From IMG/VR virus record IMGVR_UViG_3300027754_000050: a stretch of 60,677 bases of DNA; one strand, written 5' to 3'. The notes under the pieces were generated by a model, which worked only from the letters and a program-made list of their open reading frames with translations, was not told where the DNA came from and searched no databases. Both the position numbers and the translations under genes were made by a program. How positions within the stretch are numbered: the stretch's first letter is position 1; each line of letters starts with the position of its first letter. Below, piece after piece: positions 5,562 through 40,856 of the stretch. The DNA is from an uncultured virus (IMG/VR IMGVR_UViG_3300027754_000050) (Duplodnaviria > Heunggongvirae > Uroviricota > Caudoviricetes).

Positions 5562-5750
5562 TTAAATAGGGAGTATATTGTTTGCGATAAAACCTGCCGT
5601 ATTACAGGTGTTCTCCCGTGAGGAATTTATAGCATCGAATATTTTTGTGATTGTGTTGGAATCGAGGTATAGTATATCTATTTCCCATTCATCACTGAGG
5701 TATTTCAGAACGGATACAGTGAAAGCACATTCGTTTGGGTTCGTATTCAT
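5562..5750 (-). CDS. hypothetical protein
   Basis: 62 aa; stop inside the motif. Confidence 0.65.
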   Translation of the reverse strand: MNTNPNECAFTVSVLKYLSDEWEIDILYLDSNTITKIFDAINSSRENTCNTAGFIANNILPI

Positions 5751-5788
5751 CCATCATGGCTCCTTATATTAAAATATACCGTGCCAGT

Positions 5789-6358
5789 TCAAAGTTTTAA
5801 TTTAAATTTAGGATAAATTTCAATTTTATTATCTTCTGCCAACCAACCATCCACATCAAAATCATGCCAACTGATCTGTCTCATACCACACCACAAGAAA
5901 TTTAAAAATTGATTATTAATACATTCTGAATATTTTTTTCTTTTGCAGACCTGTCGTTCATAAGATAAAATATCTAAATCGTTAGGATTTTTAGAGCCAT
6001 TAGCCATACTTCCAAACACCCAGACATTATGGACAATATGGTATCTAAAATCTGTATTATTATTTCCTACAAAAACCCCCTCTATAATTTTTAATCTTTC
6101 ATGTATTGTTTTGCAATATTCAAAAGCCTTTTCTCTATCAAGATTTTTTTTATTCTTTTTATGTTTTTCAATTACCAAATCATCAGGATTTTCTTTTATG
6201 GGCTTTCTGATCTTCCAGTCCAAAGCCCGTCGAATACAAGTATCTTTGTTGGCAAATTTTAGAGCTTCCAATATTTTATTTTTGCCGATCTTTTCGATAA
6301 AAGCATCCTCACAACAATGGTATCTTGAGACTATTCTGAGTAAATCTTCTAATAGCAC
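5789..6358 (-). CDS. Pol-beta-like nucleotidyltransferase domain protein
   Basis: VWVFGS...NDLDIL (hGS..DxD) motif. Confidence 0.65.
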   Translation of the reverse strand: MLLEDLLRIVSRYHCCEDAFIEKIGKNKILEALKFANKDTCIRRALDWKIRKPIKENPDDLVIEKHKKNKKNLDREKAFEYCKTIHERLKIIEGVFVGNNNTDFRYHIVHNVWVFGSMANGSKNPNDLDILSYERQVCKRKKYSECINNQFLNFLWCGMRQISWHDFDVDGWLAEDNKIEIYPKFKLKL

Positions 6359-6370
6359 AATAACACTTTG

Positions 6371-6568
6371 TTATTCTTTTTCTATTGTTTCTGTTGTAAA
6401 TCTTTCGCCCCAACAGGCCCGCTCACTCACATCGGCTCCGGTGGCAAAAACTTCAGAGCCGTCCTCATTAGAAATGAATAGGGAAAGGTGATCGTCCGTA
6501 TCCCTGACGATCATCACCTTCCAAGAGCCGATTGATACAGTCTCAGATTCATGGTTAATCGTCGTCAT
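6371..6568 (-). CDS. hypothetical protein
   Basis: ORF, start adjusted to MTTINH. Confidence 0.6.
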   Translation of the reverse strand: MTTINHESETVSIGSWKVMIVRDTDDHLSLFISNEDGSEVFATGADVSERACWGERFTTETIEKE

Positions 6569-6761
6569 CGTCGCACAATATCCCTTCATTACTGGACGAT
6601 ATTTCTTCCCAAAGCTCCTCATCGCTGGCGGCTTCTAGTCTTTCAACAATATCGTTGAAAACGTGCATACTAATATCTTTCTGAGACATCCCTTCCAGTA
6701 TTGACTCAGCATGGCGATACACAAGATCACTACGATTTGCGTCTGTAATTTCTGTAATCAT
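6555..6761 (-). CDS. hypothetical protein
   Basis: 68 aa, RBS. Confidence 0.65.
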   Translation of the reverse strand: MITEITDANRSDLVYRHAESILEGMSQKDISMHVFNDIVERLEAASDEELWEEISSSNEGILCDDDDD

Positions 6762-6769
6762 GATTACTC

Positions 6770-7084
6770 CTATTTTCTTCCTTGATGAGCTGGAAATCGA
6801 GAGTACAATTCCTCTCGTAGATCAGTGAGGTCAACATTAAGATAAACGGGGCCTTTATTCCCTCCGTCGATAAAATTTTCGTGATAAAAGAAGTCTAAAC
6901 TACTTGTGGCAATTAGCTCTTTCCCGTGGTATAAAAGAATGATGAACGAATCACCTTCTTTTTCGATGACGATTTTGCCGTCGTGCAGTACGCTGTTTCT
7001 GACTGCTCGCATCAACCCACCTGCCAGTGGCTCGTCACGGGTGTATTGAACATCCACTTCAATAGTGCGGTATTTTTCGGCCAT
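6770..7084 (-). CDS. hypothetical protein
   Basis: 104-aa ORF. Confidence 0.7.
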   Translation of the reverse strand: MAEKYRTIEVDVQYTRDEPLAGGLMRAVRNSVLHDGKIVIEKEGDSFIILLYHGKELIATSSLDFFYHENFIDGGNKGPVYLNVDLTDLREELYSRFPAHQGRK

Positions 7085-7177
7085 TGTGATTCTCTTTCTT
7101 GAAATCGCCTACAAGCCCATACCCTATAAGGTACAATTAAACTTCATTTATGTTTTTGCCGTTTTTCAGAATAACCG

Positions 7178-7582
7178 TCAGGCATCACTAAAACAGCGTG
7201 GTTTGAAACAATCTAGTATTTCAAGTTTCTTTAAGTTAGCCCCCAGAACAACTTCCATGTTAAGCTCTTTTGCGACACTAATGCCGAAATCAAAAACGCA
7301 TTCAACGCCGCCTCGGGGATTCTTCTTTCGGTTGTCAGACAGTTCAAACCTCACAGCCAGACCGTCATTGGTGAAATCGGATGTGACTACTGTTGCCACT
7401 CCATAACCTAACCAAACCACGCCATCATCTGTACAATGTGGCCTATCGCCAGATTGATCTTTGAGTGAGTACCTTTTACTGAGGCGATCAAACCATAAGC
7501 TGTGACCATTTGTTCCATCTGTGAAGCACAGCTTCCAATCGTAATCATTGCTATCTCTAATCATTTTTTCTCTCTTTGTCAT
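7178..7582 (-). CDS. hypothetical protein
   Basis: Start adjusted to the ATG downstream of motif 7603. Confidence 0.7.
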   Translation of the reverse strand: MTKREKMIRDSNDYDWKLCFTDGTNGHSLWFDRLSKRYSLKDQSGDRPHCTDDGVVWLGYGVATVVTSDFTNDGLAVRFELSDNRKKNPRGGVECVFDFGISVAKELNMEVVLGANLKKLEILDCFKPRCFSDA

Positions 7583-7615
7583 CTGGGAATAGTAGTCATA
7601 CCCTATAAGGTACAA

Positions 7616-7960
7616 TTAAACTTCATTTATGTTTTTGCCGTTTTTCAGAATAACCGTTTTTATATCACCATAATACTGGCGGGCGTATTCGTTTGCGGCA
7701 AGATCATTTATTGTGCGAATACTTTCTAATATTTTCCATCCATCACCGTCTTTCACTGCGATCTCGTAGCTTATCGCCCATGTTTCGTTCATAAGATCAT
7801 TGCAGGCAGCGGCAGCGTGGGATATTTCCCCTTCGTTATAGTGAGGAAATATATTTATTAGATCGGATATATTCGCATTTGCACCGTTGTCATCCCATGA
7901 AATTTTTACCTCATGACCGTCTACATTCACGCTATCTCGGCTTGTTGTTGTATTATTCAT
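7616..7960 (-). CDS. hypothetical protein
   Basis: 114 aa; stop inside the motif. Confidence 0.7.
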   Translation of the reverse strand: MNNTTTSRDSVNVDGHEVKISWDDNGANANISDLINIFPHYNEGEISHAAAACNDLMNETWAISYEIAVKDGDGWKILESIRTINDLAANEYARQYYGDIKTVILKNGKNINEV

Positions 7961-8282
7961 TATATTTTCCTGGGATGTTCCATGCCTTGCTATCCTTATT
8001 GTATCCTGTTAATTCCGTTAAGAATACGACTGCATCCTCTGAATTTTGGAAATCCTGTATCCAGCGTATATCGCATCCTTCTCGATACCATGCGTATACT
8101 GTATAGGTTGTTGTATTGCTTTCATCGAAATGTTCGATGTATTCCGACTCTTTGATATATGGGCGGCGATTCGGAACGGTGGCATTATCAGTAACGGTAA
8201 CGATTACGAAACTTTTATATTTCGAGCGTTTGTTCGGATTCTTTACTGTTCCTGTAAAGAATCTTGTTTTAATATCATTCAT
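7953..8282 (-). CDS. hypothetical protein
   Basis: 109 aa, overlaps neighbours. Confidence 0.7.
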   Translation of the reverse strand: MNDIKTRFFTGTVKNPNKRSKYKSFVIVTVTDNATVPNRRPYIKESEYIEHFDESNTTTYTVYAWYREGCDIRWIQDFQNSEDAVVFLTELTGYNKDSKAWNIPGKYNE

Positions 8283-8430
8283 TGTGTTGTCTCGGTCGTA
8301 ATATATTCGCTACGTTTTCGATTCTTCCTGCTTCCGCAAGCATCTCACCTGCAATGTTTCTCAGGGAGGCGGCTTTCGCTCGCAAACTCTCCGCTTCGTC
8401 CGTGATTCTTTCTTTTGGTGTCTTTTCCAT
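8275..8430 (-). CDS. 51-aa hypothetical protein
   Basis: Hand-translated, TGATG-coupled to the upstream ORF. Confidence 0.55.
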   Translation of the reverse strand: MEKTPKERITDEAESLRAKAASLRNIAGEMLAEAGRIENVANILRPRQHNE

Positions 8431-8594
8431 CACTCCGTGTCCTCAGTGATTTCGCCAACAACAATATCCCCTATCTGATGCGAGTTCGACAGTTCGTCTA
8501 CTCTTTGCTGCATTGCATCTTCTCCAGAAACCACTTCCCAGAAACGATGAGGCACAGCATTACCCCAAACCCAACAAACAACATAGTCGCTCAT
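8430..8594 (-). CDS. 54-aa hypothetical protein
   Basis: Hand-translated, AAGGA RBS. Confidence 0.55.
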   Translation of the reverse strand: MSDYVVCWVWGNAVPHRFWEVVSGEDAMQQRVDELSNSHQIGDIVVGEITEDTE

Positions 8595-8726
8595 CGCTAA
8601 AATCCTTTGGTGTCTTAACTATAAGATAAGGTACAATTAAATAATATCAACGGCAGAAAGTCTGTATTCTCTGGCTTTTTCTTCCAACCGAGAGGCGGTG
8701 CCTTCGTTTATTTCGCCAATATCATT

Positions 8727-8939
8727 CTAACTATTTCTGGGTCTTCCACGGTACTGTGGCATCTCCTCTAAGCGATTTTTCTCAGCAGCGACTTCTTCGT
8801 GATCCGTACTGTGCCCCCCGATCCCTAGGCACGCTTCGGAGTCAAGCACTGAAAGCATCAGTCCACCGTCGTCAACATAGACATGTGCGTCTTTTGGGAG
8901 GGTGTTAAGCCATCTCTTCAGTTCTTTTGCTGTGATCAT
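8727..8939 (-). CDS. hypothetical protein
   Basis: 70-aa ORF. Confidence 0.7.
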   Translation of the reverse strand: MITAKELKRWLNTLPKDAHVYVDDGGLMLSVLDSEACLGIGGHSTDHEEVAAEKNRLEEMPQYRGRPRNS

Positions 8940-8976
8940 GTCTCAATAAATTCCTTTGTTACAAGATAAGGTACAA

Positions 8977-9225
8977 TTAAATAACATCAACGGCAGACAG
9001 TCTGTATTCTCTGGCTTTTTCTTCCAACCGAGAGGCTACCTCGTTGTATGCATCGGCTTTGGACTTGCGACTCAGCATCCGGTGGTAACCAGAACCCCGT
9101 CCTTGTTCTCCTTTGCGTCTGGCATAAACGAAGTGGTCATCTTCTCGTAATAGTTCAAGTTCCACTACGGATAAATCCCACGTGATGATCCAGATTGTTT
9201 CCCTAGGAGATTTCATGACTCCCAA
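8977..9225 (-). CDS. hypothetical protein
   Basis: 82 aa; stop inside the motif. Confidence 0.65.
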   Translation of the reverse strand: MGVMKSPRETIWIITWDLSVVELELLREDDHFVYARRKGEQGRGSGYHRMLSRKSKADAYNEVASRLEEKAREYRLSAVDVI

Positions 9226-9324
9226 TCGTTAGAATAAATATCGTAGATGCCAACATCGTCATATTCGGTATCCATCGTATTCTCCGTTAACGTGTCTTAA
9301 CTCTACACTATAAGGTACAAATAT

Positions 9325-9795
9325 TTATTCTATGCTGGAATTAAGGAAGATTGTACTTTCCCCGTATTTTGCGATGATCTTAGCCATGAGTTCTGGCGAA
9401 AACGCTCCAATTGCTGTATCATACTCACCATCGGAGTATTTTACATTTGGTTTTCTGAAAAGCACTTTATTTTTACAAAGTTTTTTCAAATATTTATTCT
9501 CCAAAATATCTTGAAGTAGTGTTTCAACGACTGTTTCGCCGGTTTGCGGAGAATATCGGTTTTTATGACCGATAAAACTCTCACAAACTTCTGCTAGGTC
9601 TACAGGTGGTAGGGTTGCAGCATATTCATCCAAAGTTATTCGGAATGAGTTTGGGAAGATGCTTGTGTTGCCGCCCTTTCCATCGTTCGATGCAGAGCCC
9701 ATTTTTACACCGTCAACGTAAATGCTGCACTCGAAGCATTCTGTTTCTTGGCTACCAAGTGCAGAGTGTTTAACATTTTTAAGTACGATATTCAT
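9325..9795 (-). CDS. phage hypothetical protein (SxETxCF...NDGxGG)
   Basis: 156 aa filling the interval between two motif copies. Confidence 0.8.
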   Translation of the reverse strand: MNIVLKNVKHSALGSQETECFECSIYVDGVKMGSASNDGKGGNTSIFPNSFRITLDEYAATLPPVDLAEVCESFIGHKNRYSPQTGETVVETLLQDILENKYLKKLCKNKVLFRKPNVKYSDGEYDTAIGAFSPELMAKIIAKYGESTIFLNSSIE

Positions 9796-9828
9796 TTTTT
9801 ATCCTTATGCTCTATAAGGTACAATTGA

Positions 9829-10068
9829 TTATAGCCCTGCCCTTGTTCGTGCCATGCCAGCATGTGCTGCTGCCACACCATCTCGGCTCTCTGCTGCCAG
9901 ACTTTTCGCCCATTTCAACTTTTGCTGATGAGTCATCGTCGGCAAATCAACTCTTGCCGCCATCCAAGCCCCGATGGTCGTGTGTACAAATCCGTCGAGA
10001 TCGCTTTTCATGTTCTCTCCGTAATCCCCAAGATTCGTTTTGTGAAAACTGCTCATTCGTCCACACAC
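9829..10068 (-). CDS. hypothetical protein
   Basis: 79-aa ORF. Confidence 0.55.
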   Translation of the reverse strand: MCGRMSSFHKTNLGDYGENMKSDLDGFVHTTIGAWMAARVDLPTMTHQQKLKWAKSLAAESRDGVAAAHAGMARTRAGL

Positions 10069-10271
10069 GAATCATCATATTCCATCATGTCATATAGCCT
10101 GTCGTGAGTGTTCGACCAGTCCATGTTGTCATCGATGATGTCACAGTCGATAGCCCATGCGTCGTTGTCTTGCCGGTCGAACTCCTGCGATTTCCACCAC
10201 GCAAAAATGATGTTTTTTGTTCCCTCTTTTTTTGCATTCTGGAGTTGTTCAATAGCATCATCAATTTTCAT
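10053..10271 (-). CDS. hypothetical protein
   Basis: 72 aa, RBS. Confidence 0.7.
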   Translation of the reverse strand: MKIDDAIEQLQNAKKEGTKNIIFAWWKSQEFDRQDNDAWAIDCDIIDDNMDWSNTHDRLYDMMEYDDSCVDE

Positions 10272-10324
10272 GCTTAATTCCTTATGAAAGGTATCCCGTC
10301 ATCCTTACATACTATAAGGTACAA

Positions 10325-10504
10325 TTAATTATTAGATTCAATCCAATGCACGGGTTTGCCCTCTTCCGCAAAGTCGGCAAGTACCATAGCTCTTGCTGCG
10401 GCTTCGGTATTGGCTTGTTTGCTGCAACCATATTTTTGGTGATCGTCTTCTGAATCATCATCGTATCTGTCCTCAGACATAACCGTAAAGTAGAATGTTT
10501 TCAT
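10325..10504 (-). CDS. hypothetical protein
   Basis: ATGA-coupled; stop inside the motif. Confidence 0.6.
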   Translation of the reverse strand: MKTFYFTVMSEDRYDDDSEDDHQKYGCSKQANTEAAARAMVLADFAEEGKPVHWIESNN

Positions 10505-10758
10505 CTCTTTCGTATCCTTCGGCAACTGGTCGCCTGCATTTCCTGTGCCTCATTGTCCGTGCTCCGACATGAAGTCAGTGGGGTGCAGTCTTCAAATCCT
10601 GCTGCATAAACATCTACCCCAACGCCTTCATCCGTACGAATGATATGGATGGAGAACATCTTGACTTCTATCCAAGTGTCCTCGGCTTCAGGTGCAAGCA
10701 ATGAATCGCTTTCTTCGTCTAAAATGGGATGACTGGCTGGCAAGTTATTCGACATCAT
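10501..10758 (-). CDS. hypothetical protein
   Basis: 85 aa, RBS. Confidence 0.7.
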   Translation of the reverse strand: MMSNNLPASHPILDEESDSLLAPEAEDTWIEVKMFSIHIIRTDEGVGVDVYAAGFEDCTPLTSCRSTDNEAQEMQATSCRRIRKR

Positions 10759-10794
10759 GTAGTCTCCTTTGTTTCCTTACACTATAAGGTACAA

Positions 10795-11163
10795 TTAATT
10801 TACTTTAATATCTTTGGTGTGTGTTTCACTAACTCCGAAGGCATTCTTGCATGAGAACTTTAGCGTTACCGTATTCCCGCTAACTTTTGTGCTAAATTCA
10901 TGGAATACCAATGAGTCTGGAAAATTCACTGAGGCTCGGACAATTTCCTTTGCCTTTAGAATCTTGTCAATATCATCGCTCGTAGTCCTGACGGTGGCGA
11001 AACCAGATTTTCTGCACATTCGACAGGGTGGCGCCGCTTCTTCCATGAGCTTTGCAGCATCTGGGTTTACTACAATTTTTCTCGCCTCTTTTACTCCTAC
11101 GGCATTGCTAATGCCTTGGAAAATACAAAATGCAAATAGCATAACAAAAATTATCGTTTTCAT
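10795..11163 (-). CDS. putative exported or membrane-anchored protein
   Basis: Hydrophobic N-terminus, FPDS..F and KNAFGV motifs. Confidence 0.75.
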   Translation of the reverse strand: MKTIIFVMLFAFCIFQGISNAVGVKEARKIVVNPDAAKLMEEAAPPCRMCRKSGFATVRTTSDDIDKILKAKEIVRASVNFPDSLVFHEFSTKVSGNTVTLKFSCKNAFGVSETHTKDIKVN

Positions 11164-11172
11164 ATCACTCCT

Positions 11173-11391
11173 TTAGTTTAGTGTAACAAGTCCCATAAGT
11201 AGCAATTCTTCTAATCCGTAAACTTTTGATCTTTCACAAACATCGCAGTTGTACTCTTGCGCATCTGGTTCTACGCCTTCGGAGAACGATCCGCAACCCG
11301 TACATGCACCAGTGTAGTTTTCGCTGCCTTCTATGTACTCATATTCTTTCATTTCAAAACAATATGTACTGCCATTTTCTTTTGCTAACAT
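11173..11391 (-). CDS. small zinc-ribbon protein
   Basis: CTGC...EPDA...CDVC...VYG.EELL. Confidence 0.75.
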   Translation of the reverse strand: MLAKENGSTYCFEMKEYEYIEGSENYTGACTGCGSFSEGVEPDAQEYNCDVCERSKVYGLEELLLMGLVTLN

Positions 11392-11430
11392 AATTTCTCC
11401 TCACCCCTTAAGGTACAATTATTTTGAGGT

Positions 11431-11748
11431 TTATTCAATATCCCGAAAAAAGCCGCCATCCATGCCTATGCGTCTATCCACTGCTTTCATTAAATCTTTT
11501 ATCCACACCGTGCGACTCATATTTTTAACATTAAGTTTTAATCCGATACAGGAATTCAGATGATCTTTACTTATGTAGAAACTGTTAGGCGCGGGCCTCA
11601 CCTTGAAAACCTCACGATCTAAAGCTCTGGAGAATTGCATACGGAACAGCCATTCATCCATATTGTCCGAGTTGAGTTCGTCTAGTCCGATTACATATCG
11701 GTTAGACATCAGCACCTCGACTACAGCCTGCTTTACTTCTGTTGTCAT
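11431..11748 (-). CDS. hypothetical protein
   Basis: 105-aa ORF. Confidence 0.7.
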   Translation of the reverse strand: MTTEVKQAVVEVLMSNRYVIGLDELNSDNMDEWLFRMQFSRALDREVFKVRPAPNSFYISKDHLNSCIGLKLNVKNMSRTVWIKDLMKAVDRRIGMDGGFFRDIE

Positions 11749-11976
11749 TTAAAGCAACTTTCTTCGTCCTTCATAGACCGTCTCAATGTATAACTTTCCA
11801 GAATCATCTTCATGAATCGTCTCTTTATTACTTTGCTCGGAATAGTCATAATTCCTAACAATAAGGTTAACCGTAGATGGTACAAACACAGGTACAATAA
11901 CCCCTTCATCTAACAAAATAACTACGTCATCAGTTTTGATAGGTCTGCCTAGTATCTGCTTCGGGATATTATTCAT
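11749..11976 (-). CDS. hypothetical protein
   Basis: 75 aa, coupled. Confidence 0.7.
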   Translation of the reverse strand: MNNIPKQILGRPIKTDDVVILLDEGVIVPVFVPSTVNLIVRNYDYSEQSNKETIHEDDSGKLYIETVYEGRRKLL

Positions 11977-12179
11977 GTTGCACCGCCACGCAATAGCTGT
12001 GCCCCAGTTGGATCACCCTTAACGATCTTCACAGTCCAGCCTGCACGACCTGCCAGTGACTCTACGGACTTTTTATCAAGGATTTCCCCAATGCTGTATG
12101 CGACGGAATTTACCATCTCCTTCACCGTAAATGTTCGCACTCCACCGACATTGCTTTCGCCTAAAATCATCTTTTTCAT
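11973..12179 (-). CDS. hypothetical protein
   Basis: 68 aa, RBS. Confidence 0.7.
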   Translation of the reverse strand: MKKMILGESNVGGVRTFTVKEMVNSVAYSIGEILDKKSVESLAGRAGWTVKIVKGDPTGAQLLRGGAT

Positions 12180-12231
12180 CTTATTCTCCTTTATCCTATA
12201 AGGTACAATTAAAAACTGAATAACTCTCTAT

Positions 12232-12510
12232 TCAAACCAGTTCTTCTCGTTCCTTGAGCCAGTTTTCGCACCAGCGTTGAACAGAACGATCTACTGGCGG
12301 GTCACCTGCGAGTTGACAAACACGACTTCCGTCCATACTGACTGAATCTACGGCGACACTATCTTCATCGGCCCGATCCGCGATAAAATCGCTGTCGTCT
12401 TGCGTCATGTCGCTAGCCATCTCTGCTGCAACATCATCATTTGGAGCCTCGAAAATCACTTTGGCTTCAAACGACTTAACAACGGTAAAACTTTGTGTGT
12501 ACTTCGGCAT
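12232..12510 (-). CDS. hypothetical protein
   Basis: Start adjusted to MPKYTQ after AGGAGA. Confidence 0.7.
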   Translation of the reverse strand: MPKYTQSFTVVKSFEAKVIFEAPNDDVAAEMASDMTQDDSDFIADRADEDSVAVDSVSMDGSRVCQLAGDPPVDRSVQRWCENWLKEREELV

Positions 12511-12604
12511 GATTGTCTTGTCTCCTATTAAAAAGTTAATCGAACTAAACACTACACCATATAAGGTACAATTAAAAACTGAACGATCTCTCGTCCTAAT
12601 AACC

Positions 12605-13288
12605 TCAGCCAAACACATGTACCATCTCGAAAAGATCGTCCATGTAAGTGTGATGGGGGTTGCGTTCCATCACTGGGCCGATTTTGTCGTGTGAGAAGTA
12701 GTTTTCGTTGGCCACCACCTTGCGGATCACAGCCTCCAAGATGTTCCACTCCGGAGAATCTTTGACCTTCTCATCGATCAATTCTTTCGCAATTTCCGGC
12801 TTGGTAGCCAACTCCCTTGACCAGCGGTCGCAGTTTTCCTTCCACTTTGCGACGAAGGACTTGATCGCATCCACTGTCATGTCCAAATCCAGATCGACCA
12901 ACTCCTTGATCTCGTCCTCATTCAGATAGCAAGCCTCATCGATGATTTTTTCGGCAAGTTGAGTTGGGATGGCAAGCAGTCCATCGCATCCACTCGTGGA
13001 ATTGTCATCCGCCCAAGGGTCTGCGCAAACCACAACGTCCTTTGATTCGTTGACTATTTGCTTTAAACATTCTACGATGCCAGCCTCGTCATCGCAGTGA
13101 AAATGTTCTATGCCAACACTATCAAGATAATCTGTCCAATCTTTTCTGGTGAACTTTTGCTGGCGAGTCAGGTCAGAGGAATTGGTTTTTAGGCTCATAC
13201 TATCAATAAGCTCTTCATATCGGTCTTCAATAATTTTGTATATCTTCTTTTCCAGATCACAGCCATTTTTTTTAGTTTTAATAATCAT
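12605..13288 (-). CDS. hypothetical protein
   Basis: 227-aa ORF. Confidence 0.75.
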   Translation of the reverse strand: MIIKTKKNGCDLEKKIYKIIEDRYEELIDSMSLKTNSSDLTRQQKFTRKDWTDYLDSVGIEHFHCDDEAGIVECLKQIVNESKDVVVCADPWADDNSTSGCDGLLAIPTQLAEKIIDEACYLNEDEIKELVDLDLDMTVDAIKSFVAKWKENCDRWSRELATKPEIAKELIDEKVKDSPEWNILEAVIRKVVANENYFSHDKIGPVMERNPHHTYMDDLFEMVHVFG

Positions 13289-13364
13289 TGTCCACTCTTT
13301 CTCTTGTTTTTTCAGGAAACATCACTACAACATATAAGGTACAATTAAAAACTGAACAACTCTC

Positions 13365-13757
13365 TCATCCGAATCCTGTCCACATTTGAAATTCCACAAT
13401 ATCATTAAACTTCACGCCTGCTGGGCTAAGGGTAGTCATGCCTGAGACACTCCAGTTTGCCCCATCTTCCAATTCGTCTTGCCGTCCTCCGTCCTCGGAA
13501 GGATAGTAGAAGATACTAAGCTCTAAACCCGTGCCGTTCACTTCTGTAATTTTTTCAAATTCTTTCAGCAGGGCGGAGTAGCAAATATCAACCTCTCCCT
13601 CGCCGTCTGGATTCGGCTCTTCGGCAGCATACTCGTCTAGGCTGATGCCCTCACCTTCGCATGCGGCTTCAAGCCGTTCCGCTTGAAGAGGACACAATTT
13701 TTTAATGTTGTCCCAAGAAACAATATAACCAGACGCAGGATACGAGTCCATTCCCAT
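13365..13757 (-). CDS. hypothetical protein
   Basis: 130 aa between motif copies. Confidence 0.75.
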   Translation of the reverse strand: MGMDSYPASGYIVSWDNIKKLCPLQAERLEAACEGEGISLDEYAAEEPNPDGEGEVDICYSALLKEFEKITEVNGTGLELSIFYYPSEDGGRQDELEDGANWSVSGMTTLSPAGVKFNDIVEFQMWTGFG

Positions 13758-13823
13758 TGTTTTATTCCGTTATTTGTATTATGTAAAATTCACTACAACA
13801 TATAAGGTACAATTAAAAACTGT

Positions 13824-14000
13824 TTAAGGTCGCCCATTTTTATCGACCCATCCATATCGTACTGGATCAAAAGACTCCTCTTCTTCATCAGACTGAACTT
13901 CTGTCTCGGCATTTTCTGCGTAGCATTTGTCCAGCAGTATACATTCTTCTAACAGTGCAGCAGAATCTTCGTCACTGTTATTGTCTCGGTATCGAATCAT
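13824..14000 (-). CDS. 58-aa acidic hypothetical protein
   Basis: Hand-translated. Confidence 0.55.
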   Translation of the reverse strand: MIRYRDNNSDEDSAALLEECILLDKCYAENAETEVQSDEEEESFDPVRYGWVDKNGRP

Positions 14001-14006
14001 ATTTAA

Positions 14007-14378: not shown

Positions 14379-14431
14379 GATATTTTATCCTGTTAGTTTT
14401 TGTCGTTACACCCTATAAGGTACAATTAAAT

Positions 14432-31607: not shown

Positions 31608-31668
31608 TTTATTTTCCTTTAAGTTATTTTAGAAACAGGTTGAACACTCTATAAGGTACAATTAAATT

Positions 31669-32514: not shown

Positions 32515-32572
32515 TTTAATTCCTATGTTAAGTTATCTGCTGGACACTCTATAAGGTACAATTAAATTCGGC

Positions 32573-33106
32573 TCAAAGACTCATCAAGTTCAAAGCACTC
32601 TGCCTATTGCATAATCTTTGTAAGGTTTTTGAAACTTCATCTTTTATTTGTTCAGTTGAAAGATCATCTACTTTTATGTTGCATGAAACTGCCGTTTGTA
32701 CAATATCAAGCCATTCTTGATCAATAGGTGTGAAATACTTGTTTTGAGAGATAATGTTATTGAGTACATCTGTTTTTTCGTATATCTTAAAGCACATTAT
32801 TTTTGGCATAGAAGATAAAGTTATATCATGGTGAACATCATTTTCATCTACTACCCAAGCATGACTGATTGGAAGTCCTATGCTGGTAACTACTATTCCT
32901 TCTGCATATCGTAGTTTATGCAAGTTCTGCATTACAATCCTTTGGGCATTTGCAAAGCATTGTTTAGCTTGTGGTCTAAAATTAGCAACTCTAATAGATT
33001 CTTTAATGTGTTTTGGATGGTGTTTATAAGGAACGGGACACCACCCATTCTTCATTAGCTTGTCAAATATATCGTTCATTACATTGCACCAAGAAAACAT
33101 ACCCAT
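32573..33106 (-). CDS. hypothetical protein with a possible Cys-His-Asp triad (CF.NA...Y.EG...HAW...D.T)
   Basis: 177 aa; first 7 codons identical to the neighbour's start. Confidence 0.65.
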   Translation of the reverse strand: MGMFSWCNVMNDIFDKLMKNGWCPVPYKHHPKHIKESIRVANFRPQAKQCFANAQRIVMQNLHKLRYAEGIVVTSIGLPISHAWVVDENDVHHDITLSSMPKIMCFKIYEKTDVLNNIISQNKYFTPIDQEWLDIVQTAVSCNIKVDDLSTEQIKDEVSKTLQRLCNRQSALNLMSL

Positions 33107-33141
33107 TTTAAGTTATCTGCTGGACACACTATAAGGTACAA

Positions 33142-33972
33142 TTAAATTCCTTTATCAGAACACACTACCTCATCAGCACTTGTATCGGGAGAAACAACAA
33201 CAACTTTTGGGACTCTATGCTTGACGATCTTATGATACTTTTTTGCCTTAAAATATCTTTTGATCCAATAGTTATTTGGGGCGGTCATTGCATGAACAAT
33301 CATAGAATTATGCAGGTAGCTGGATAGTTTTCCTCGCACCTTATTTTTCGCATAATTGTAGCACCAACATGGATTCATGGCGATAGTCTCTTCGCTCCAT
33401 TCCTTCCAATCATTGCAAAACCGATTAAGGTACTGCCGGTCTTCACCTCTATTCGTAGTATCCTCTTTGCAAGTGTCTGCTATTGCCCTTTCACCAGCAA
33501 GAAATCGTTCTCTAATAATACCTGAGTATTCAAAAGAATAGTGTCCATCGGTAGCAATAATGCTCTCGGCTTTTGTCCATCTTGCTTTTTCGAGCTTATA
33601 ACCTGCCGATGCGAAGTAATTCCAGACTAACCGCACACTAGGATTGTTCAGTAAAAACTGATCTTCCATTTTATCCCATTCAAAAATACCATTGTCGAGG
33701 GTTTTCTTATGGTTATTTTTGAGCCTAGTAATATATTTACAAATTGAATTCTTTAGGTCGATGTCTTCTTCACCTTCTGCCGCCTTTAAAATCATAGAAA
33801 ACATTAAGTCTTCTGCCTCTTTCCACCGACCTTTAACGCTGTCGGTAGCATAGGCTGTAAGCAAATCAATGTTATCCGCTTGAAGCAAAAACACTTCAAA
33901 CTCTGGAACTCTTTTCCCGCCTGCACAATAATTCATGTGTTGTGCCAGATTTTTCCAATGTTCAGCAAGCAT
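33142..33972 (-). CDS. divergent 26-aa repeat family protein
   Basis: GRW..AE..I repeats, L..YLHNSMI C-terminal module. Confidence 0.8.
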   Translation of the reverse strand: MLAEHWKNLAQHMNYCAGGKRVPEFEVFLLQADNIDLLTAYATDSVKGRWKEAEDLMFSMILKAAEGEEDIDLKNSICKYITRLKNNHKKTLDNGIFEWDKMEDQFLLNNPSVRLVWNYFASAGYKLEKARWTKAESIIATDGHYSFEYSGIIRERFLAGERAIADTCKEDTTNRGEDRQYLNRFCNDWKEWSEETIAMNPCWCYNYAKNKVRGKLSSYLHNSMIVHAMTAPNNYWIKRYFKAKKYHKIVKHRVPKVVVVSPDTSADEVVCSDKGI

Positions 33973-34017
33973 GGTATTTTCCTTGTTATTTGTTGTTGAC
34001 TACACTATAAGGTACAA

Positions 34018-34842
34018 TTAAAAACGATACTTCTTTGCCGAAAAATATACCTTCACATAATAGTCTTTTGGGTTTTTCATTGCATGAGCAATCATAGAGT
34101 TATGCAAAAACTTTGGCAGTTTGCCCTTGCACACATCTTTTGCAAACAGATAACTCCAACAACTACTTAAAGCAATAGTTTCCTCAGACCATTCACTCCA
34201 ATCATTGCAAAACTTAGTTGCGTAAAGATACGATGGCAAAGACTGTAAATTTGCAAACGGCAAATTCAATCTTCGGGCTTCCATATCACACTTTGCGATG
34301 CTAGGTTCTCCAAGAAGAAATCTTTCGTTCGTATCAAAAGCATAGTTGTAACTATGACTACTGTTTTTGGCAATGAAGGGTTCAATTTGTTCCCACCGAG
34401 ATGGATACATATTGCCATCTTCAATGGCTCCACGAACAACAAGCATCCAATAATTCCACGCATGTTTTTCGTTTAGAAAAAGATGCTCTGCTTCCCTCCA
34501 TCGACCTTTTACGATGAACCGAGCATAATCGCAAGCAGCGTTAATATTGTCACTGCTACCATCTCTTTCACACAATTCAATAATAGCGTCTTCTGCTTCA
34601 AGCCATCTTCCCTCTATAATATTTCTAGCATACGTTTTCATTGCCCGCACACTGCACTTGAGAATATATTTCTCAAAATCTGGATGGCGGTCTACGATAC
34701 GGAAAGTAGGCGACAACTTCGTGTACTCTCTACTCCATTGACTCCAGTATTGCGACAAGAGGAGTCCTATAGGATGGTTTATTCTACTTTCCTGAGTCCA
34801 GTTGCGAGATCGGACTCGGCTGTTATCTTGTGTCTTTTGCAT
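34018..34842 (-). CDS. divergent 26-aa repeat family protein
   Basis: YA..I..GRW.EAE repeats, GKLPKFLHNSMI. Confidence 0.8.
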   Translation of the reverse strand: MQKTQDNSRVRSRNWTQESRINHPIGLLLSQYWSQWSREYTKLSPTFRIVDRHPDFEKYILKCSVRAMKTYARNIIEGRWLEAEDAIIELCERDGSSDNINAACDYARFIVKGRWREAEHLFLNEKHAWNYWMLVVRGAIEDGNMYPSRWEQIEPFIAKNSSHSYNYAFDTNERFLLGEPSIAKCDMEARRLNLPFANLQSLPSYLYATKFCNDWSEWSEETIALSSCWSYLFAKDVCKGKLPKFLHNSMIAHAMKNPKDYYVKVYFSAKKYRF

Positions 34843-34871
34843 AACAAACCATAAGGTACAATTTTAATTTC

Positions 34872-36179
34872 CTACCCTTCGTATGGCACATTGACGCGAA
34901 CAACTTCTCCGAATGGAGGAACTACATTTGACGTTAAAACCCACAAGGTTTCAAATGGTGGTTTTTCGTCGCCAAAGTTACCCTCGCCATCCGTAAAAAA
35001 GCAACAATAATCTGGCCTGATCCGTTCACGAATCAAATGGTTGAAAACAGGAACGAAATCAGTTCCACCACCACCGCTAAGAGTTGGCAATTCTTCGTGC
35101 GGCATAATCCATTTGCTGCTATGCAGATCGGCATCACAAGCAATGAAATACACCTGTGCTTGAAACTTTTTCCGTATGTCTTCAAGTTCGCTCATAGCCT
35201 GTGTCAGATCAGTTTCGCTCATGCTTCCGCTTGTGTCAACAGCATACACAATTTTTGGAGATGCCGGGCCAACATTGCTTGGGAAAATAAAGTCTGCACC
35301 GAGAAACCTACGATTTGGGGTACTCCAACTTGTGTCTCGCTTTTCAACACGACTCACTCCGTAGCGTAACTTCTGTCGAAGTGCTGCCATCCAATCAATT
35401 TGTGGTCGAAGTAATTTTCTAATAGCCCGATCAAAATCGGCTGGCAACTTGCCCTGTGTTTTTGCAACAGCATACGCCTCTTGTGTTCCAGCCTTGACCC
35501 AATCAGATATGATTCTTTGAGCCTCTGCTTTTGTTTTGCCCGAAGTGTCTGGCAGAGGAACCCTACGCTCTCGACCAGTTACGCTACCATTACCGATAGC
35601 ATCATCATCCAAATCTTTCATATCATCATCATTGCTATCTTCATTTTCTTTTTCTTCATCCTTGATTTTCTCGTAGATAGATTCGGCACTCATACCCTCA
35701 TACTGTTCGTCAAGGCAACCACCCTCAATAAAGAATTCGGGGCTTTTTTCAAATTGATAATGAAGCAAAAGGTTGATCGCATAATCACAAGCCTTATTGA
35801 AAATATGGTGATCTCGCATTCCCTTACGGGAGGCGTGTTCAAAAGCGAAGTGACTAATCTCATGGGCTACAAGAAACAAGACTTTCTTGTAATAGAGTTT
35901 CCCATGATCTTGTCGCAGCTTTTCAAGAAAGTCCACATTAAAAAGAATATGTCCGGTCGCTGTAATTCCCGCAGTAGGAACCAATGTCTTGGTTAAAGAA
36001 AACGTGCATCTTTCGCTAATCACACCCCAAAAAGGAAACTCCAAAGAATACTTGCAGGTAATAACATCAATATCAGCACGAAACTTCTTAAAATCTTCTT
36101 GCTCAATTTGCAAAGATTTTAAGGCATCAGACACAACGCTGTTTTCTGACGATACTTTTGGGGCTTTAGTTCTTGGCAT
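34872..36179 (-). CDS. DUF2201-like metallopeptidase plus vWA domain protein
   Basis: HEISH, N.ACD.AIN, DTSGS MIDAS, GGGGTDF, FTDG. Confidence 0.88.
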   Translation of the reverse strand: MPRTKAPKVSSENSVVSDALKSLQIEQEDFKKFRADIDVITCKYSLEFPFWGVISERCTFSLTKTLVPTAGITATGHILFNVDFLEKLRQDHGKLYYKKVLFLVAHEISHFAFEHASRKGMRDHHIFNKACDYAINLLLHYQFEKSPEFFIEGGCLDEQYEGMSAESIYEKIKDEEKENEDSNDDDMKDLDDDAIGNGSVTGRERRVPLPDTSGKTKAEAQRIISDWVKAGTQEAYAVAKTQGKLPADFDRAIRKLLRPQIDWMAALRQKLRYGVSRVEKRDTSWSTPNRRFLGADFIFPSNVGPASPKIVYAVDTSGSMSETDLTQAMSELEDIRKKFQAQVYFIACDADLHSSKWIMPHEELPTLSGGGGTDFVPVFNHLIRERIRPDYCCFFTDGEGNFGDEKPPFETLWVLTSNVVPPFGEVVRVNVPYEG

Positions 36180-36225
36180 TTTTGTTTCTTTCTTTTAAGT
36201 TCACGATACACCGTATAAGGTACAA

Positions 36226-36675
36226 TTAAACCGGCACGGTCTGATGTCGTGGTGGCAGCTCAGTCCATTTAGATTTAATACAATCCTTGAGCATACCGTC
36301 TATGTGCTTCGATCCAAGCTGAAACATGAGCATAGCTCCCGTGCTTTTGGAATTCATTTTTTGGTTCAGCCTGCACATAGGTTGACCCATGCTTTTTAAG
36401 AGAGCAGTGCCCTCCGCCGAACGTGCTCCAGTATCTTGCAGTGTCTTGCCCGCAACCTTTTCGGCAGCGCGGACTAGCCCAGTGGCTAGACCTCTGCGAC
36501 GATACCTCTCCTCAATCCGAACAATCTCTAGCTTGCCGGGAGCCTTGTCGAAGGTGCAGAAGCCAACCACGTGCCCGTATTTGCCGTTGTGGCACACGCA
36601 CAATACGCAATCCGTTGAGCTAAGGTCGGAGATGTCCGCTTCCGCCCAGTAAAACTTTTCAATCTCTTGATTCAT
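36226..36675 (-). CDS. GNAT acetyltransferase
   Basis: YRRRGLAT acetyl-CoA-binding motif. Confidence 0.75.
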   Translation of the reverse strand: MNQEIEKFYWAEADISDLSSTDCVLCVCHNGKYGHVVGFCTFDKAPGKLEIVRIEERYRRRGLATGLVRAAEKVAGKTLQDTGARSAEGTALLKSMGQPMCRLNQKMNSKSTGAMLMFQLGSKHIDGMLKDCIKSKWTELPPRHQTVPV

Positions 36676-36719
36676 TTTAGTTTCTTTCTTTTAAGCTACA
36701 CACACCGTATAAGGTACAA

Positions 36720-37160
36720 TTAAAACCATTCCACCACATCTTTGGGTCTCACAGTTGTCATCTCAATGTCATGTTCTATACCTGCAATGGTCGCAAAATA
36801 CTCCTTCACCCACTCGTCGGAACTGTCCATTATACCAAATGCCAGCATTTTTCGGTGCATAATGTCTGGCAATCGTCCTTGGATTGCCCATCGTGAGTAA
36901 AAAAAAGACATTTCTGCACTCGTACTTATCGCAGCTTCGCCAAGCACGAATCGACCGCCGATTATCTCTACTGCATAATGGTAAGAATAATATGCACTCG
37001 TACTTATCGCAGCTTCACCAAGTTCCCATCGACACTGTTTTACAGCTATTGCATAGCAATAAGAAGCATCTGCTTCCCCACTGATAATCTGCTCCAGTGA
37101 TTCACGATCCTTATGGTTCTTGTCTTCACATAGTTTTCTATAAGCTTGTTCTGGATTCAT
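36720..37160 (-). CDS. 26-aa repeat family protein
   Basis: Tandem paralog. Confidence 0.85.
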   Translation of the reverse strand: MNPEQAYRKLCEDKNHKDRESLEQIISGEADASYCYAIAVKQCRWELGEAAISTSAYYSYHYAVEIIGGRFVLGEAAISTSAEMSFFYSRWAIQGRLPDIMHRKMLAFGIMDSSDEWVKEYFATIAGIEHDIEMTTVRPKDVVEWF

Positions 37161-37722
37161 TTTTAGTGTCCTTACGCTTTAAGGTACAAACTTTTCCAAA
37201 ATACTTCTTCACATCTTTGTCAGAACTGTCCGTTATACCAAATGCCAGCATTTTTCGGTGCATAATGTCTGGCAATCGTCCTTGTATTACATCTATTGCA
37301 TATAAATAAGACCATCTTGGGGCGGCTTGACTTATCGCGGCTTCGCCAAGTTCCCATCGTCCTTCGATTACATGTCGTGCATAGAAGTAAGACGATCTTG
37401 CTTCTTGACTTATCGCAGCTTCGCCAAGTTCGAATCGACCCTTGATTACATGATTTGCATAGTTAAAAGAAGTATATGCATCCTCGCTTATTGCAGCTTC
37501 ACCAAGTACGAATCGTTCGTGGATTACATATTTTGCATATTCACACGAATATTCTGCGTCCTTGCTTATGACATATTCACCAAGTACGAATCTTCCTTTG
37601 ATTACATGTTCTGCATAAAGACAAGAATATTCCGCACTTGTGCTAATAATCTGTTCTAGTGCGTCACGATCCTTATGATTAGGATCTTTATGCAATATAT
37701 CATATGCCCAATTTGGATTCAT
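37138..37722 (-). CDS. 26-aa repeat family protein
   Basis: Tandem paralog. Confidence 0.85.
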   Translation of the reverse strand: MNPNWAYDILHKDPNHKDRDALEQIISTSAEYSCLYAEHVIKGRFVLGEYVISKDAEYSCEYAKYVIHERFVLGEAAISEDAYTSFNYANHVIKGRFELGEAAISQEARSSYFYARHVIEGRWELGEAAISQAAPRWSYLYAIDVIQGRLPDIMHRKMLAFGITDSSDKDVKKYFGKVCTLKRKDTKNESRTSL

Positions 37723-38218
37723 TTTTAGTGTCCTTACGCTTTAAGGTACAATACTTTTTAGATCCTAGATACTTCTTCACATATTTGTCTGAACTGTCAA
37801 TTATACCAAATGCAATCATTTTATTGTGCATTACGGTTGGCAATCGTCCTTTGATCACATCTTTTGCGTAAATGTACAGCCATGCTGGACACTTCATTGC
37901 GAGTTCTTCTGTCCAATTTCTTCTGATAACATACTTTCCATACCAATATGAATAATATTCATATTTACATATTGTTTCTTCTGCAAGTTCGAATCGCCCA
38001 TGGATTACATTTCTTGCATAACCACAAGAATAACCTGCATTTTTGCTTATAGCAGCTTCGCCCAGTACGAATCGGCCTACCATACCCCGACGACAACATA
38101 CATTTCTTGCGTAAAGATAAGAATACTTAGAATGTGTGCTGATATCCCGCTCTAGATATTCCAGATTTTTATGGTTGTTGTTTTTTCGTAATGTTTTATA
38201 AGCTTGTTCTGGAGTCAT
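37700..38218 (-). CDS. 26-aa repeat family protein
   Basis: Tandem paralog. Confidence 0.85.
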   Translation of the reverse strand: MTPEQAYKTLRKNNNHKNLEYLERDISTHSKYSYLYARNVCCRRGMVGRFVLGEAAISKNAGYSCGYARNVIHGRFELAEETICKYEYYSYWYGKYVIRRNWTEELAMKCPAWLYIYAKDVIKGRLPTVMHNKMIAFGIIDSSDKYVKKYLGSKKYCTLKRKDTKNESKLGI

Positions 38219-38238
38219 TTTTAGTGCCCTTCCTTACA

Positions 38239-39093
38239 CTATAAGGTACAATACTTTTTAGATCCTAAATAACGCTTCACATATCTGTTCGAACTATCAA
38301 TCATACCAAAAACTAGCATTTTGTTGTGCATGGTTGTTGGTAGCCGTCCTTTGCTCACATCTTTTGCGTAGAGATAAAGCCATATAGGACACATCACGGC
38401 TAGTTCTTGCGTCCAATTTCCTCGGACCAAATCATTTGCATAAAAATTAGCATAAACTTCTTTTTTGCTTATCGCAGCTTCGCCAAGTTCGAATCGACCG
38501 CCTATTACTTCTTTTGCATAATAATAAGAAGCGTCGGCATCTTTGCTTATTGCATCTTCACCAAGTTCCCATCGCCCGCCTATTACCTCTTTTGCATACC
38601 ACTGGGACCATCTTGCTTTTTGACTTATCGCAGCTTCGCCAAGTATGAATCGTCCGCCTAATACATTTGTTGCATACTCATAAGAATGAATTGCGTCCTC
38701 GCTTATCACAGCTTCGCCAAGTTCGAATCTTCCTTCGATTACATGTTCTGCATAAAGACAAGAAACTAATGCATCCTCGCTTATTGCAGCTTCACCAAGT
38801 ACGAATCTTCCTTTGATTATATATCTTGCATACCAATAAGAATGTTCTGCATCCTTGCTGATAGCCTCTTCGCCAAGCATGAATCGACTTTCGATTGCAT
38901 ACTTTGCATACTGATAAGAATGCATTGTACTTTTGCTTATTGTAGCTTCGCCAAGTATGAATCTTCCTTGAACTACACTACTTGCATACTCCACAGAATA
39001 TTCTGCGTCCTCGCTTATAATGTGCTCCAGTGATTCACGATCCTTATGGTTCTGGTCTGCACATAATTTTTCAAACGCTTGATTTGGATTCAT
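38239..39093 (-). CDS. 26-aa repeat family protein (about 7 full repeats)
   Basis: Tandem paralog. Confidence 0.88.
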   Translation of the reverse strand: MNPNQAFEKLCADQNHKDRESLEHIISEDAEYSVEYASSVVQGRFILGEATISKSTMHSYQYAKYAIESRFMLGEEAISKDAEHSYWYARYIIKGRFVLGEAAISEDALVSCLYAEHVIEGRFELGEAVISEDAIHSYEYATNVLGGRFILGEAAISQKARWSQWYAKEVIGGRWELGEDAISKDADASYYYAKEVIGGRFELGEAAISKKEVYANFYANDLVRGNWTQELAVMCPIWLYLYAKDVSKGRLPTTMHNKMLVFGMIDSSNRYVKRYLGSKKYCTL

Positions 39094-39817
39094 TTTTAGT
39101 GTCCTTACGCTTTAAGGTACAATACTTTTTAGATCCTAAATAACGCTTCACATATTTGTCCGAACTATCCATTATACCAAAGGCTATCATTTTATTGTGC
39201 AGTACGGTTGGCAATCGACCTTTGACAACATCTTTTGCGTAAATGTATAGCCATGCTGGACACATAGCGGCGAGTTCTGGCGTCCAGTCTCGGATCGCAC
39301 ATACTGCGTAACGAAAAGACCACAGGGCATCTTTGCTTATCGCAGCTTCGCCTAATACGAATCGTTCGTGGATTATATCCCGAGCATACCAATAAGAATA
39401 CAGAGAACTCTCGCTTATTGCAGATTCGCCAAGTTCGAATCGACCTCCTATTACATGCTCTGCATAAAGACAAGAATATTCAGAACTTTTACATATTGCA
39501 GGTTCACCAAGTATGAATCGGCTTTTCAGTACATATTTTGCATAATAATGAGAATACTCTGCATCTTTGCTGATTGCTTCTTCTCCAAGTTCCCATCGTC
39601 CTTTTATGAAATGTTTTGCATAACGTTCAGCATATTCTGCATTTTTGCTTATTGCAGCTTCACCAAGCATGAATCGACACCTGAGTCTTCCTTCTGCATA
39701 ATTATAAGAATGTTCTGCACTCTCACTGATAATCTGCTCCAGTGATTCACGCTGGCGCTTCGGCAGAAGCCACTGATTATGTCCGCATAATATTCTATAC
39801 GCTATTTCTGGAGTCAT
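39071..39817 (-). CDS. 26-aa repeat family protein (about 5 full repeats)
   Basis: Tandem paralog. Confidence 0.88.
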   Translation of the reverse strand: MTPEIAYRILCGHNQWLLPKRQRESLEQIISESAEHSYNYAEGRLRCRFMLGEAAISKNAEYAERYAKHFIKGRWELGEEAISKDAEYSHYYAKYVLKSRFILGEPAICKSSEYSCLYAEHVIGGRFELGESAISESSLYSYWYARDIIHERFVLGEAAISKDALWSFRYAVCAIRDWTPELAAMCPAWLYIYAKDVVKGRLPTVLHNKMIAFGIMDSSDKYVKRYLGSKKYCTLKRKDTKNESKSSV

Positions 39818-40295
39818 GTTTTAACTTTTTTGCTAGATACTTCTTCACATATTTGTCAGAACTATCAATCATGCCAAAAACTAGCATTTTATTGTGCATG
39901 GCTTTTGGTAGCCGTCCTTTGCTCACATCTTTTGAGTAGAAAAATAGCCAGCATGGACACATCACGGCGAGTTCTTGTGTCCAATTTCCTCGGATTACAT
40001 ATTTCGCATATAGAAAAGCGTAGCGGTCACTTTTACTTATCGCAGCTTCACCAAGTTCGAATCGTGCACCGCAGAAGCCAGAGTCTCCGATTTCTGTATA
40101 CCATACAACCTTATAGCAGCCGGGCCACTTATACCACGGTAATGATGCATTTCTTTCATACGAATATATCGTTCGTCGAAAGCGTGCATAGTTGCAAGAC
40201 CACTTTGCATCACTGCATATTGTGTGTTCTAGTGATTCACGATCCTTATGGTTAGGATCTTTTTCTAAAATAGAAAACGCTATTTCTGGAGTCAT
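39795..40295 (-). CDS. 26-aa repeat family protein with an insertion
   Basis: Tandem paralog. Confidence 0.8.
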   Translation of the reverse strand: MTPEIAFSILEKDPNHKDRESLEHTICSDAKWSCNYARFRRTIYSYERNASLPWYKWPGCYKVVWYTEIGDSGFCGARFELGEAAISKSDRYAFLYAKYVIRGNWTQELAVMCPCWLFFYSKDVSKGRLPKAMHNKMLVFGMIDSSDKYVKKYLAKKLKHDSRNSV

Positions 40296-40313
40296 GTTTA
40301 ATATCTTTACCCT

Positions 40314-40856
40314 TTAAGGTACAATACTTTTTTCTAGATACTTCTTCACATATTTGTCAGAACTATCAATCATGCCAAAAACTAGCATTTTATTGTGCAT
40401 GGCTTTTGGTAGCCGTCCTTTGCTCACATCTTTTGCGTAGAGAAATAGCCAGCATGGACACATCACGGCTAGTTCTTGTGTCCAGCTTCCTCGGATTCGG
40501 ATTACATATTTCGCATACCAAAAAGAATACTCTGCATCTTTGCTTATCGCATCTTCACCAAGTTCCCAGCGACCCTTGATTACATTTATTGCATATTCAT
40601 AAGACAACTCTGCATCCTTGCTTATCGCAGCTTCACCAAGCACGAATCTTCCTTCGATTATATATTTTGCATACCAATAAGACCGCTCTGCACTCTCACT
40701 TATTGCAGCTTCGCCAAGTTTCCAGCGACCCTTGATTACATTTATTGCATATTTGTAAGACCAAAACGCATCACTGCATATTGTGTGTTCTAGTGACTCA
40801 CGATCCTTATGGTTATGATCGTTTTCTAAAATATCATACGCTTGTTCTGGAGTCAT
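40314..40856 (-). CDS. 26-aa repeat family protein
   Basis: Tandem paralog. Confidence 0.85.
   Translation of the reverse strand: MTPEQAYDILENDHNHKDRESLEHTICSDAFWSYKYAINVIKGRWKLGEAAISESAERSYWYAKYIIEGRFVLGEAAISKDAELSYEYAINVIKGRWELGEDAISKDAEYSFWYAKYVIRIRGSWTQELAVMCPCWLFLYAKDVSKGRLPKAMHNKMLVFGMIDSSDKYVKKYLEKSIVP

Follow-up and report, generated by a model that had tools for sequence, protein, structure and literature searches.

Why do many unrelated genes of one phage end, in the same register, at copies of one short repeated sequence? The question arises from IMG/VR record IMGVR_UViG_3300027754_000050 of an uncultured Caudoviricetes virus, analyzed here as a whole stretch of 60,677 nucleotides (the window), and from a site with the core TTGTACC that recurs between its genes. 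The window covers part of the genome of a large freshwater phage and carries mostly small orphan genes on the minus strand, together with four tRNAs (the sole matches in an Rfam scan), ThyX and two ligases. Its DNA is present in lake metagenomes, with homologs on contigs of up to 490 kb; one contig extends ~5.4 kb beyond position 1, which rules out the window start as a genome end. A preliminary description had taken the shared stop codon as a sign that genes were joined to the site in the manner of integron cassettes. Our data suggest instead that the site is very likely a phage promoter standing before nearly every small, accessory gene, and that the overlap with stop codons is most likely ordinary tight gene packing. 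Strains of this phage gain, lose and swap genes at or near the sites. Promoter activity, start point, sigma factor and recombination route are what we infer from comparing sequences.

Site positions are counted from the first T of the core. The window holds 68 direct copies, lying on the coding strand, and two inverted ones. The coding-strand consensus is (AT-rich) A-TTGTACCTTA-T-AG-N-GTGT, where TTGTACCTTA denotes ten nearly invariant bases (the box TTGTACCYTA) and the consensus downstream is weaker. The upstream flank is a loose AT-rich run, terminated by TAA in 49 of the 68 copies, with no conserved base upstream of -7. Pyrimidine-purine steps are a mark of transcription start points, and such a step stands at +16, beyond the invariant box, in 62/68 copies. 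Shine-Dalgarno-like words, detected at 42 sites, have their first base at +16 in nine and earlier in just one. Hairpins of -8 kcal/mol or better occur at +10 to +54 in nine of the 68 copies, and upstream hairpins were noted within the first 2.8 kb of the window, where alone they were counted. All direct copies are oriented with gene direction, including one that heads the array and one before tRNA-Lys. At the latter, the predicted start leaves a 4-nt leader, and the identical four bases precede tRNA-Lys in phage G004. Ordinary sigma-70 promoters are predicted elsewhere in the window, at 46371 and 59618. A plus-strand promoter with TACAAT as its -10 box was rejected: it has no -35 box and would be antisense to every gene.

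Comparison with related phages points the same way. A related phage, G001 (381 kb, 79% complete), encodes AAA and VWA proteins 74% and 66% identical to those of the window and contains 73 copies of WTTGTACCCTA (69 forward, four reverse), with the pyrimidine-purine step at +17 in 58 of the 65 copies examined. Three of its copies are isolated, far from the array, and one of these lies ~100 nt before the gene for a sigma-like protein that has no Pfam match and is 26% identical to the G002 sigma. Three sigma-70 region-2 matches and one RecA-family match were also obtained in G001, where the sigma candidates lie at L260 6511-7389, L262 1921-2832 and L261 1843-2859. After the orthologous VWA gene, four phages each bear their own element. 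In G002 and G004, this element consists of two boxes separated by a 14-nt spacer of free sequence; it occurs 64 times forward and never in reverse in G002, and 17 times on one strand in G004. These two-box elements show the same kind of step, and an ATG falls exactly at the predicted start in 8/21 cases (locus L197) and 8/26 cases (locus L200 of G004), a pattern suggestive of leaderless transcripts. The two-box, one-per-gene element (G002 69166-166037; L200 of G004) appears to be a second promoter class of this phage family. Because the step occupies a fixed position, ribosome-binding sites follow it, copies are oriented with transcription and relatives carry corresponding elements, we consider a promoter the best reading of the site.

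We next turn to the stop codons. All 15 open reading frames (ORFs) named earlier indeed stop at the TAA immediately before TTGTACC on the minus strand, and of those assigned to the other arm, ORF 38239 ends at a TAG at +10 and ORF 40314 at a TAA at +8. ORF 5356, placed in the same group, has its TAG in that register (+10), but the copy is broken and its first three core bases are the gene's own codons. The tRNA-Arg, described as ending about 1 bp from a copy, abuts the T-run and lies 3-4 nt from the TAA (3' end at 29186 according to ARAGORN and 29187 according to Rfam). Among 63 hand-curated upstream genes, 15 use the TAA at -3 and 25 more stop 7-20 nt before the core. Overall, 42 of the 63 stops lie within -20 to +12, with five each at -8 and -9, and five genes read through to +49 or +67. 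This pile-up is real when compared with evenly spread gene ends. Under a null model in which any stop triplet near the site is equally likely to be used, however, 12.4 of the 42 stops are expected at -3, against 15 observed (z 1.0, window -20 to +12); wider windows give 10.8 expected of 49 (z 1.6) and 9.1 of 52 (z 2.3). The overlap frequency is thus compatible with compaction. Two comparisons gave similar pictures: at 24 hand-picked junctions free of the site, one 4-nt overlap was common to six, a rate similar to 15/63, and in T7 (annotation of NC_001604) the first TAA of the promoter is the upstream gene's stop at 7/17 promoters. Since genes crowd against the site and its TAA is the only stop triplet at a constant place, the register largely follows. 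A pure run-on model was rejected as a complete account: it predicts 22-32% of stops at -3 (15/63 seen) but 41-63% at or past +8 (7/63 seen), an excess implying that reading through the core is disfavored.

If genes had been cut and joined at the site, their C termini should differ from those of homologs lacking it, and here the results divide. The AAA ATPase (30528) has 15 residues beyond its last conserved Trp; this number is 15 in 32 of 86 homologs and 16 in 45 of them, and the orthologs in G001, G002 and G004 terminate at the identical column, without a site following their stops. For ORF 10795, the homolog in a related phage ends at the identical residue with TGA and has no site in the next 40 nt. 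The tail of the WGR-domain ligase (17325), at six residues, is of normal length (1-10 residues, mode 4, in 118 homologs). ORF 16125 shares its last six residues with G001, yet the stop is at -5 there and at -9 in the window. Other termini are altered. ORFs 34018, 38239 and 40314 are shorter than most members of their G001 families, the tails of 19163, 27723 and 36720 are absent from homologs, and 19163 and 33142 have different tails in strains without the site. In strain L029, a single left-over tail yields the stop at -8 for one gene and, in a different frame, at -3 for another. The final two residues of ORF 5356 are unlike both the copy at 4817 and the strains. Eleven paralogous genes with 26-residue repeats (36720-41469, 26971-27546 and 33142-34842) vary in repeat and copy number among strains; those entering the core have Lys-Tyr codons in place of the upstream TAA, and a Pfam scan of six of the eleven gave no match. 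For seven of the 15 TAA-ending genes (5562, 7616, 8977, 10325, 18535, 22874 and 36226), the loci searched contained no outside homolog. Intact and altered C termini together indicate that both routes occur: a native stop merged with the flank, and run-on to the flank TAA. The idea that genes were joined to the site therefore survives in part, in that gene blocks differing between strains end within or next to sites and a few C termini were replaced (5356, 19163, 33142, 36720 and the 26-residue-repeat family), whereas the stop overlap does not serve as a sign of integron-like joining: ORFs 30528 and 10795 terminate where site-free homologs do, the tail of 17325 is normal, and compaction accounts for the overlap frequency.

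Strain variation was assessed using a motif scan of metagenome contigs, which returned 107 stretches; 30 loci represent conspecific strains (~85-99% identity) and five are the window's own sequence. Scanning viral_contigs and genome_contigs with the window motif gave 16 and 23 stretches, respectively, the former each a lone chance match and the latter with one match apiece, while a scan of viral_contigs with the G001 motif found multi-copy arrays confined to G001 and its near-duplicate record. An AAA query against viral_contigs confirmed no relative, and every match of a ligase query against phage records was below 60% identity. With the terminal 2.9 kb and the blocks of repeat genes set aside, we computed 34 differences between strains and removed three (two chaining artefacts from displaced paralogs and one duplicate). 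Of the remaining 31 events, seven have both ends, 14 one end and ten neither end within -30 to +25 of a core. This zone makes up 8.3% of the sequence and holds 28/62 breakpoints, a baseline that overstates the enrichment because viable breakpoints favor gene borders and most borders carry the site. In clean gains and losses, the shared stretch spans 13 to 77 bp and always includes the core. Among 17 strain sites whose upstream flanks are absent from the window, three have the stop at -3, one of them the ortholog of 33142. Short left-over gene ends (fossil tails) before other sites, together with events away from sites, indicate joins at or near the sites, not at one base. An insertion at 16112, considered as a site-to-site event, turned out to sit at the predicted start point and to involve microhomology of a few bases. 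No convincing excision joint was found in the contigs of the possible source run, which drop rare forms, and most long joints in run contigs resemble repeat artefacts. As a separate observation, the site after tRNA-Glu (48445-48460) is broken in its core in the window; the L096 site is intact and preceded by just the 3' end of that tRNA.

These results can be combined into a model. The nearly invariant 10-bp box, lying ~16 to 7 nt before the start point and flanked upstream by AT-rich sequence, would be read by what is probably a phage-encoded sigma factor. Deletions would push the preceding gene up against the promoter, where the flank TAA could become its stop by merging with the gene's own TAA, leaving the protein intact; alternatively, a gene without its stop would run on to the flank TAA and have its tail replaced. 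Short-homology recombination beginning or finishing in the copies, which are the only sequence common to unrelated neighbors, would then lead to gene gain, loss and swapping between strains.

Several points weigh against this account. The window copies have no -35 box, and most sigma promoters are less invariant than the 10-bp box. A literature search, outside of which most subscription journals lay, yielded no published promoter or description matching the motif. The sigma candidates come from G001, the window being only a part of its own phage's genome. A simple promoter explains neither the inverted copies, which are conserved in G001, nor two variant (B) sites between convergent genes. The run data, from four of 23 listed runs, are assembled contigs carrying neither start-point nor strand information; contigs from the RNA run cover 20 of 30 bins and, as contigs, are uninformative on transcription. 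RB49 promoters (17 matches) have at most two stops at any one offset and no single register, and 3/65 mechanical gene calls in G001 stop at -3, so the register differs between phages. Finally, the clean swap between sites 3290 and 3597 rests on a mere 13 bp of identity.

In an unlikely extension of the model, the promoter box would also serve for targeted recombination, with a phage enzyme or the open promoter complex itself directing exchange to the 10-13-bp box. If it were true, the array would be one of gene capture, each captured gene would arrive under its own promoter, the inverted back-to-back copies and the B variants would be special sites, and an integron-like system without integron integrase would exist in a family of large freshwater phages.

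Also unlikely is that the site is the core of a site-specific recombination system, with TAA/TTA arms around a 7-bp spacer used by a tyrosine-type recombinase, and that the genes are genuine cassettes, each fused at one set base, as the preliminary description implied. The site has a dyad look, 37/68 copies matching four or five of the five arm bases; the B sites keep the flanks and change the seven central bases; breakpoints cluster as described; and each clean site-to-site swap holds the core within the shared stretch, one as short as 13 bp. Across phages, however, it is the core that is kept and the right arm that is altered, the dyad match dropping to 4/65 in G001, and coding sequence replaces the upstream arm in 19/68 window copies. 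The equivalent G002 element has a free spacer, so that no strand-exchange identity is possible there. Joining at one base is further contradicted by the events away from sites, by tails of 18-60 nt that persist and by two joins inside the core at different bases. Searches for tyrosine and serine recombinases (PF00589 and PF00239) gave no match in G001 at its 79% completeness (controls positive), and the 79 ORFs of the window, itself part of a genome, include no such recombinase and no integron integrase. The core motifs of attC, RYYYAAC and GTTRRRY, occur at 0/68 and 2/68 sites against backgrounds of 4.0% and 4.7%, and a long single-strand attC-like hairpin was not found (the two strands have a median z of 0.0 and -0.2, with five and six of 68 below -2). 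Integron attC arrays do resemble the present one in their one-orientation genes, the repeated site between them, stops in or beside it and strain-variable content. They differ in that our site lacks attC cores and hairpin, no integrase was detected in the window ORFs or G001, and each gene is apparently under its own promoter. With these promoter marks at the site and an overlap that fits compaction, the integron-like joining proposed from stop overlap is not upheld.

In mycobacteriophage L5, stoperators bind the repressor and act in orientation-dependent termination. That our site is likewise bound by a phage protein halting or silencing transcription at gene ends, and is not a start signal, would suit its asymmetry, invariance, orientation with transcription and nearness to stop codons, as well as the B sites between convergent gene ends and the inverted copies that follow terminator-like hairpins in both phages. 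We regard it as quite improbable, given the fixed start-point step, the ribosome-binding sites and hairpins that begin just downstream, the copies at the array head and before a tRNA, and the leaderless starts at a fixed distance from the orthologous G002 and G004 elements. A promoter for a single-subunit RNA polymerase of the T7 type, with its start at the G run that follows TATA, is scarcely credible: like T7 promoters, the window consensus has TATAG or TAAAG at its end and then a G, and T7 shows the same stop overlap, but G001 does not keep those bases, the step lies at +16/+17 and not at +12, and PF00940 was unmatched in G001 (five records scanned, positive control silent).

Table 1 Coordinates of the site array, individual copies and recombination traces in the window
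Feature	Position	Strand	Remark
Site array, 68 direct copies	596..52422	-	Before most genes or small gene groups
Listed core positions (plus-strand coordinates)	606, 1145, 1580, 1919, 2202, 2781, 3047, 3290, 3597, 3956, 4135, 5555 ... 42269, 48622, 51065, 51391, 52412
Stops at site TAA (-3)	5562, 7616, 8977, 10325, 10795, 17325, 18535, 19163, 22874, 27723, 30528, 33142, 34018, 36226, 36720	-	Range 5562..36722
Typical copy	30511..30530	-	Stop TAA (30528-30530) belongs to AAA ATPase gene; core at 30521-30527; predicted start and first base of a 12-bp hairpin at 30511
Copy at WGR-domain ligase gene	17308..17327	-	Provides that gene's TAA
Copy at ORF 10795	10778..10797	-	Provides TAA of ORF 10795
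Copy near tRNA-Lys	48609..48631	-	20 nt before tRNA-Lys (tRNA begins at +20)
Inverted copy	630..646	+	Back to back with 606; second such pair, 2202 with 2229
Variant B site (different 7-nt core, flanks alike)	54403..54421	-	Between convergent genes
Variant B site	56852..56876	-	Provides the TAG that stops ORF 56859-57866; flanking genes converge
Broken copy	5340..5375	-	ORF 5356 fused inside core via short filler
Tandem 26-residue-repeat gene family	36720..41499	-	Several run into or through core (stops +8, +10, +49)
Cassette (ORF 3308-3559)	3285..3604	-	Missing in strains L039 and L079; sites 3290/3597 share just 13 bp
tRNA-Arg abutting a copy	29174..29261	-	In strain L031, ~1 kb of other DNA instead, homology stopping at site
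Fossil tail	7130..7178	-	Final 42 nt of gene 7616 before another site
Fossil tail	8630-8696	-	60 nt of gene 8977
Fossil tails of 18-45 nt	12202, 13338, 15883, 18461, 18902, 31655	-	

Further structures were recorded around the array and beyond it. At the array's far end in both phages, the inverted pairs follow terminator-like hairpins and stand back to back, 11-18 nt apart (window 602-646 and 2198-2242; G001 307984-322629); their inverted copies lack the pyrimidine-purine step of the start point, which in the window lies at +16. The array end in both phages combines an inverted pair, a C-run and short tandem repeats (window 1-120; L079 1-200; L259 14000-14270). In L079, two sites form a perfect palindrome of 34 bp; in the window, a hairpin with a 15-bp stem contains the core twice. 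These array-end structures are possibly an origin or a genome boundary. The B sites at 54403-54421 and 56852-56876, if promoters, would be antisense over plus-strand genes. At 57870-59108, an RRXRR plus HNH protein, presumably of IscB-like architecture, is encoded between two inverted copies of a TATAAATA-containing stretch (59137 and 59476); Rfam gave no match upstream of this gene. An unrelated phage contig (L243 4711-12541) has ten intergenic copies of an 18-bp palindrome, and in L251 (1456-15501) an 8-nt word stands immediately before the start codon of ~20 genes, often right after the preceding stop.

Known phage systems offer two comparisons for the promoter reading. The T7 phi promoters are alike in that their leading TAA is the upstream stop in a fixed register (7/17) and differ in number (17) and in serving a single-subunit polymerase, none of which matched in G001 (search control silent). 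A closer parallel is found in T4-type phages. PMC2839356 describes ~50 promoter-terminator elements (PeSLs) per T4-type genome, stops of preceding genes that typically fall within the AT-rich section of the PeSL, and circles with crossovers at varied positions; PMC4122927 describes middle-promoter variants (PmSL), degraded copies and events away from elements. The two systems share a hyperplastic region with promoter copies by the dozen, every one preceding an orphan gene; upstream stops in the AT-rich flank; degraded half copies; and indels, replacements and displaced genes at elements, with some events elsewhere. In our set, 21 of the 31 events have at least one end within -30 to +25 of a core. 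PeSLs differ in spanning ~100 bp, with sigma-70 -35 and -10 boxes plus a stem-loop in each, whereas copies of the present site have one 10-bp box in common (swaps involve 13-77 bp of shared sequence), no -35 box and a strong hairpin just downstream in only the nine copies noted above. A PF07068 scan of five related records for T4-type phages gave no match, but its positive control was silent. In its workings the system resembles the shuffling of promoter cassettes by PeSLs, with another promoter in their place; for want of the sigma-70 boxes and of a T4-type match, it falls outside the definition of a PeSL.

The stop overlap itself is ordinary, and it is the setting that is useful. The ~30 strain contigs form a dense record of accessory-gene swaps at a probable promoter of very small size. 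At one and the same junction, each of four related large phages has a one-per-gene element of its own, and these phages also encode divergent sigma-like proteins. Two questions thereby become testable: whether shuffling of the PeSL type is targeted or simply follows short homology, and how a phage sigma factor evolves along with its promoter.

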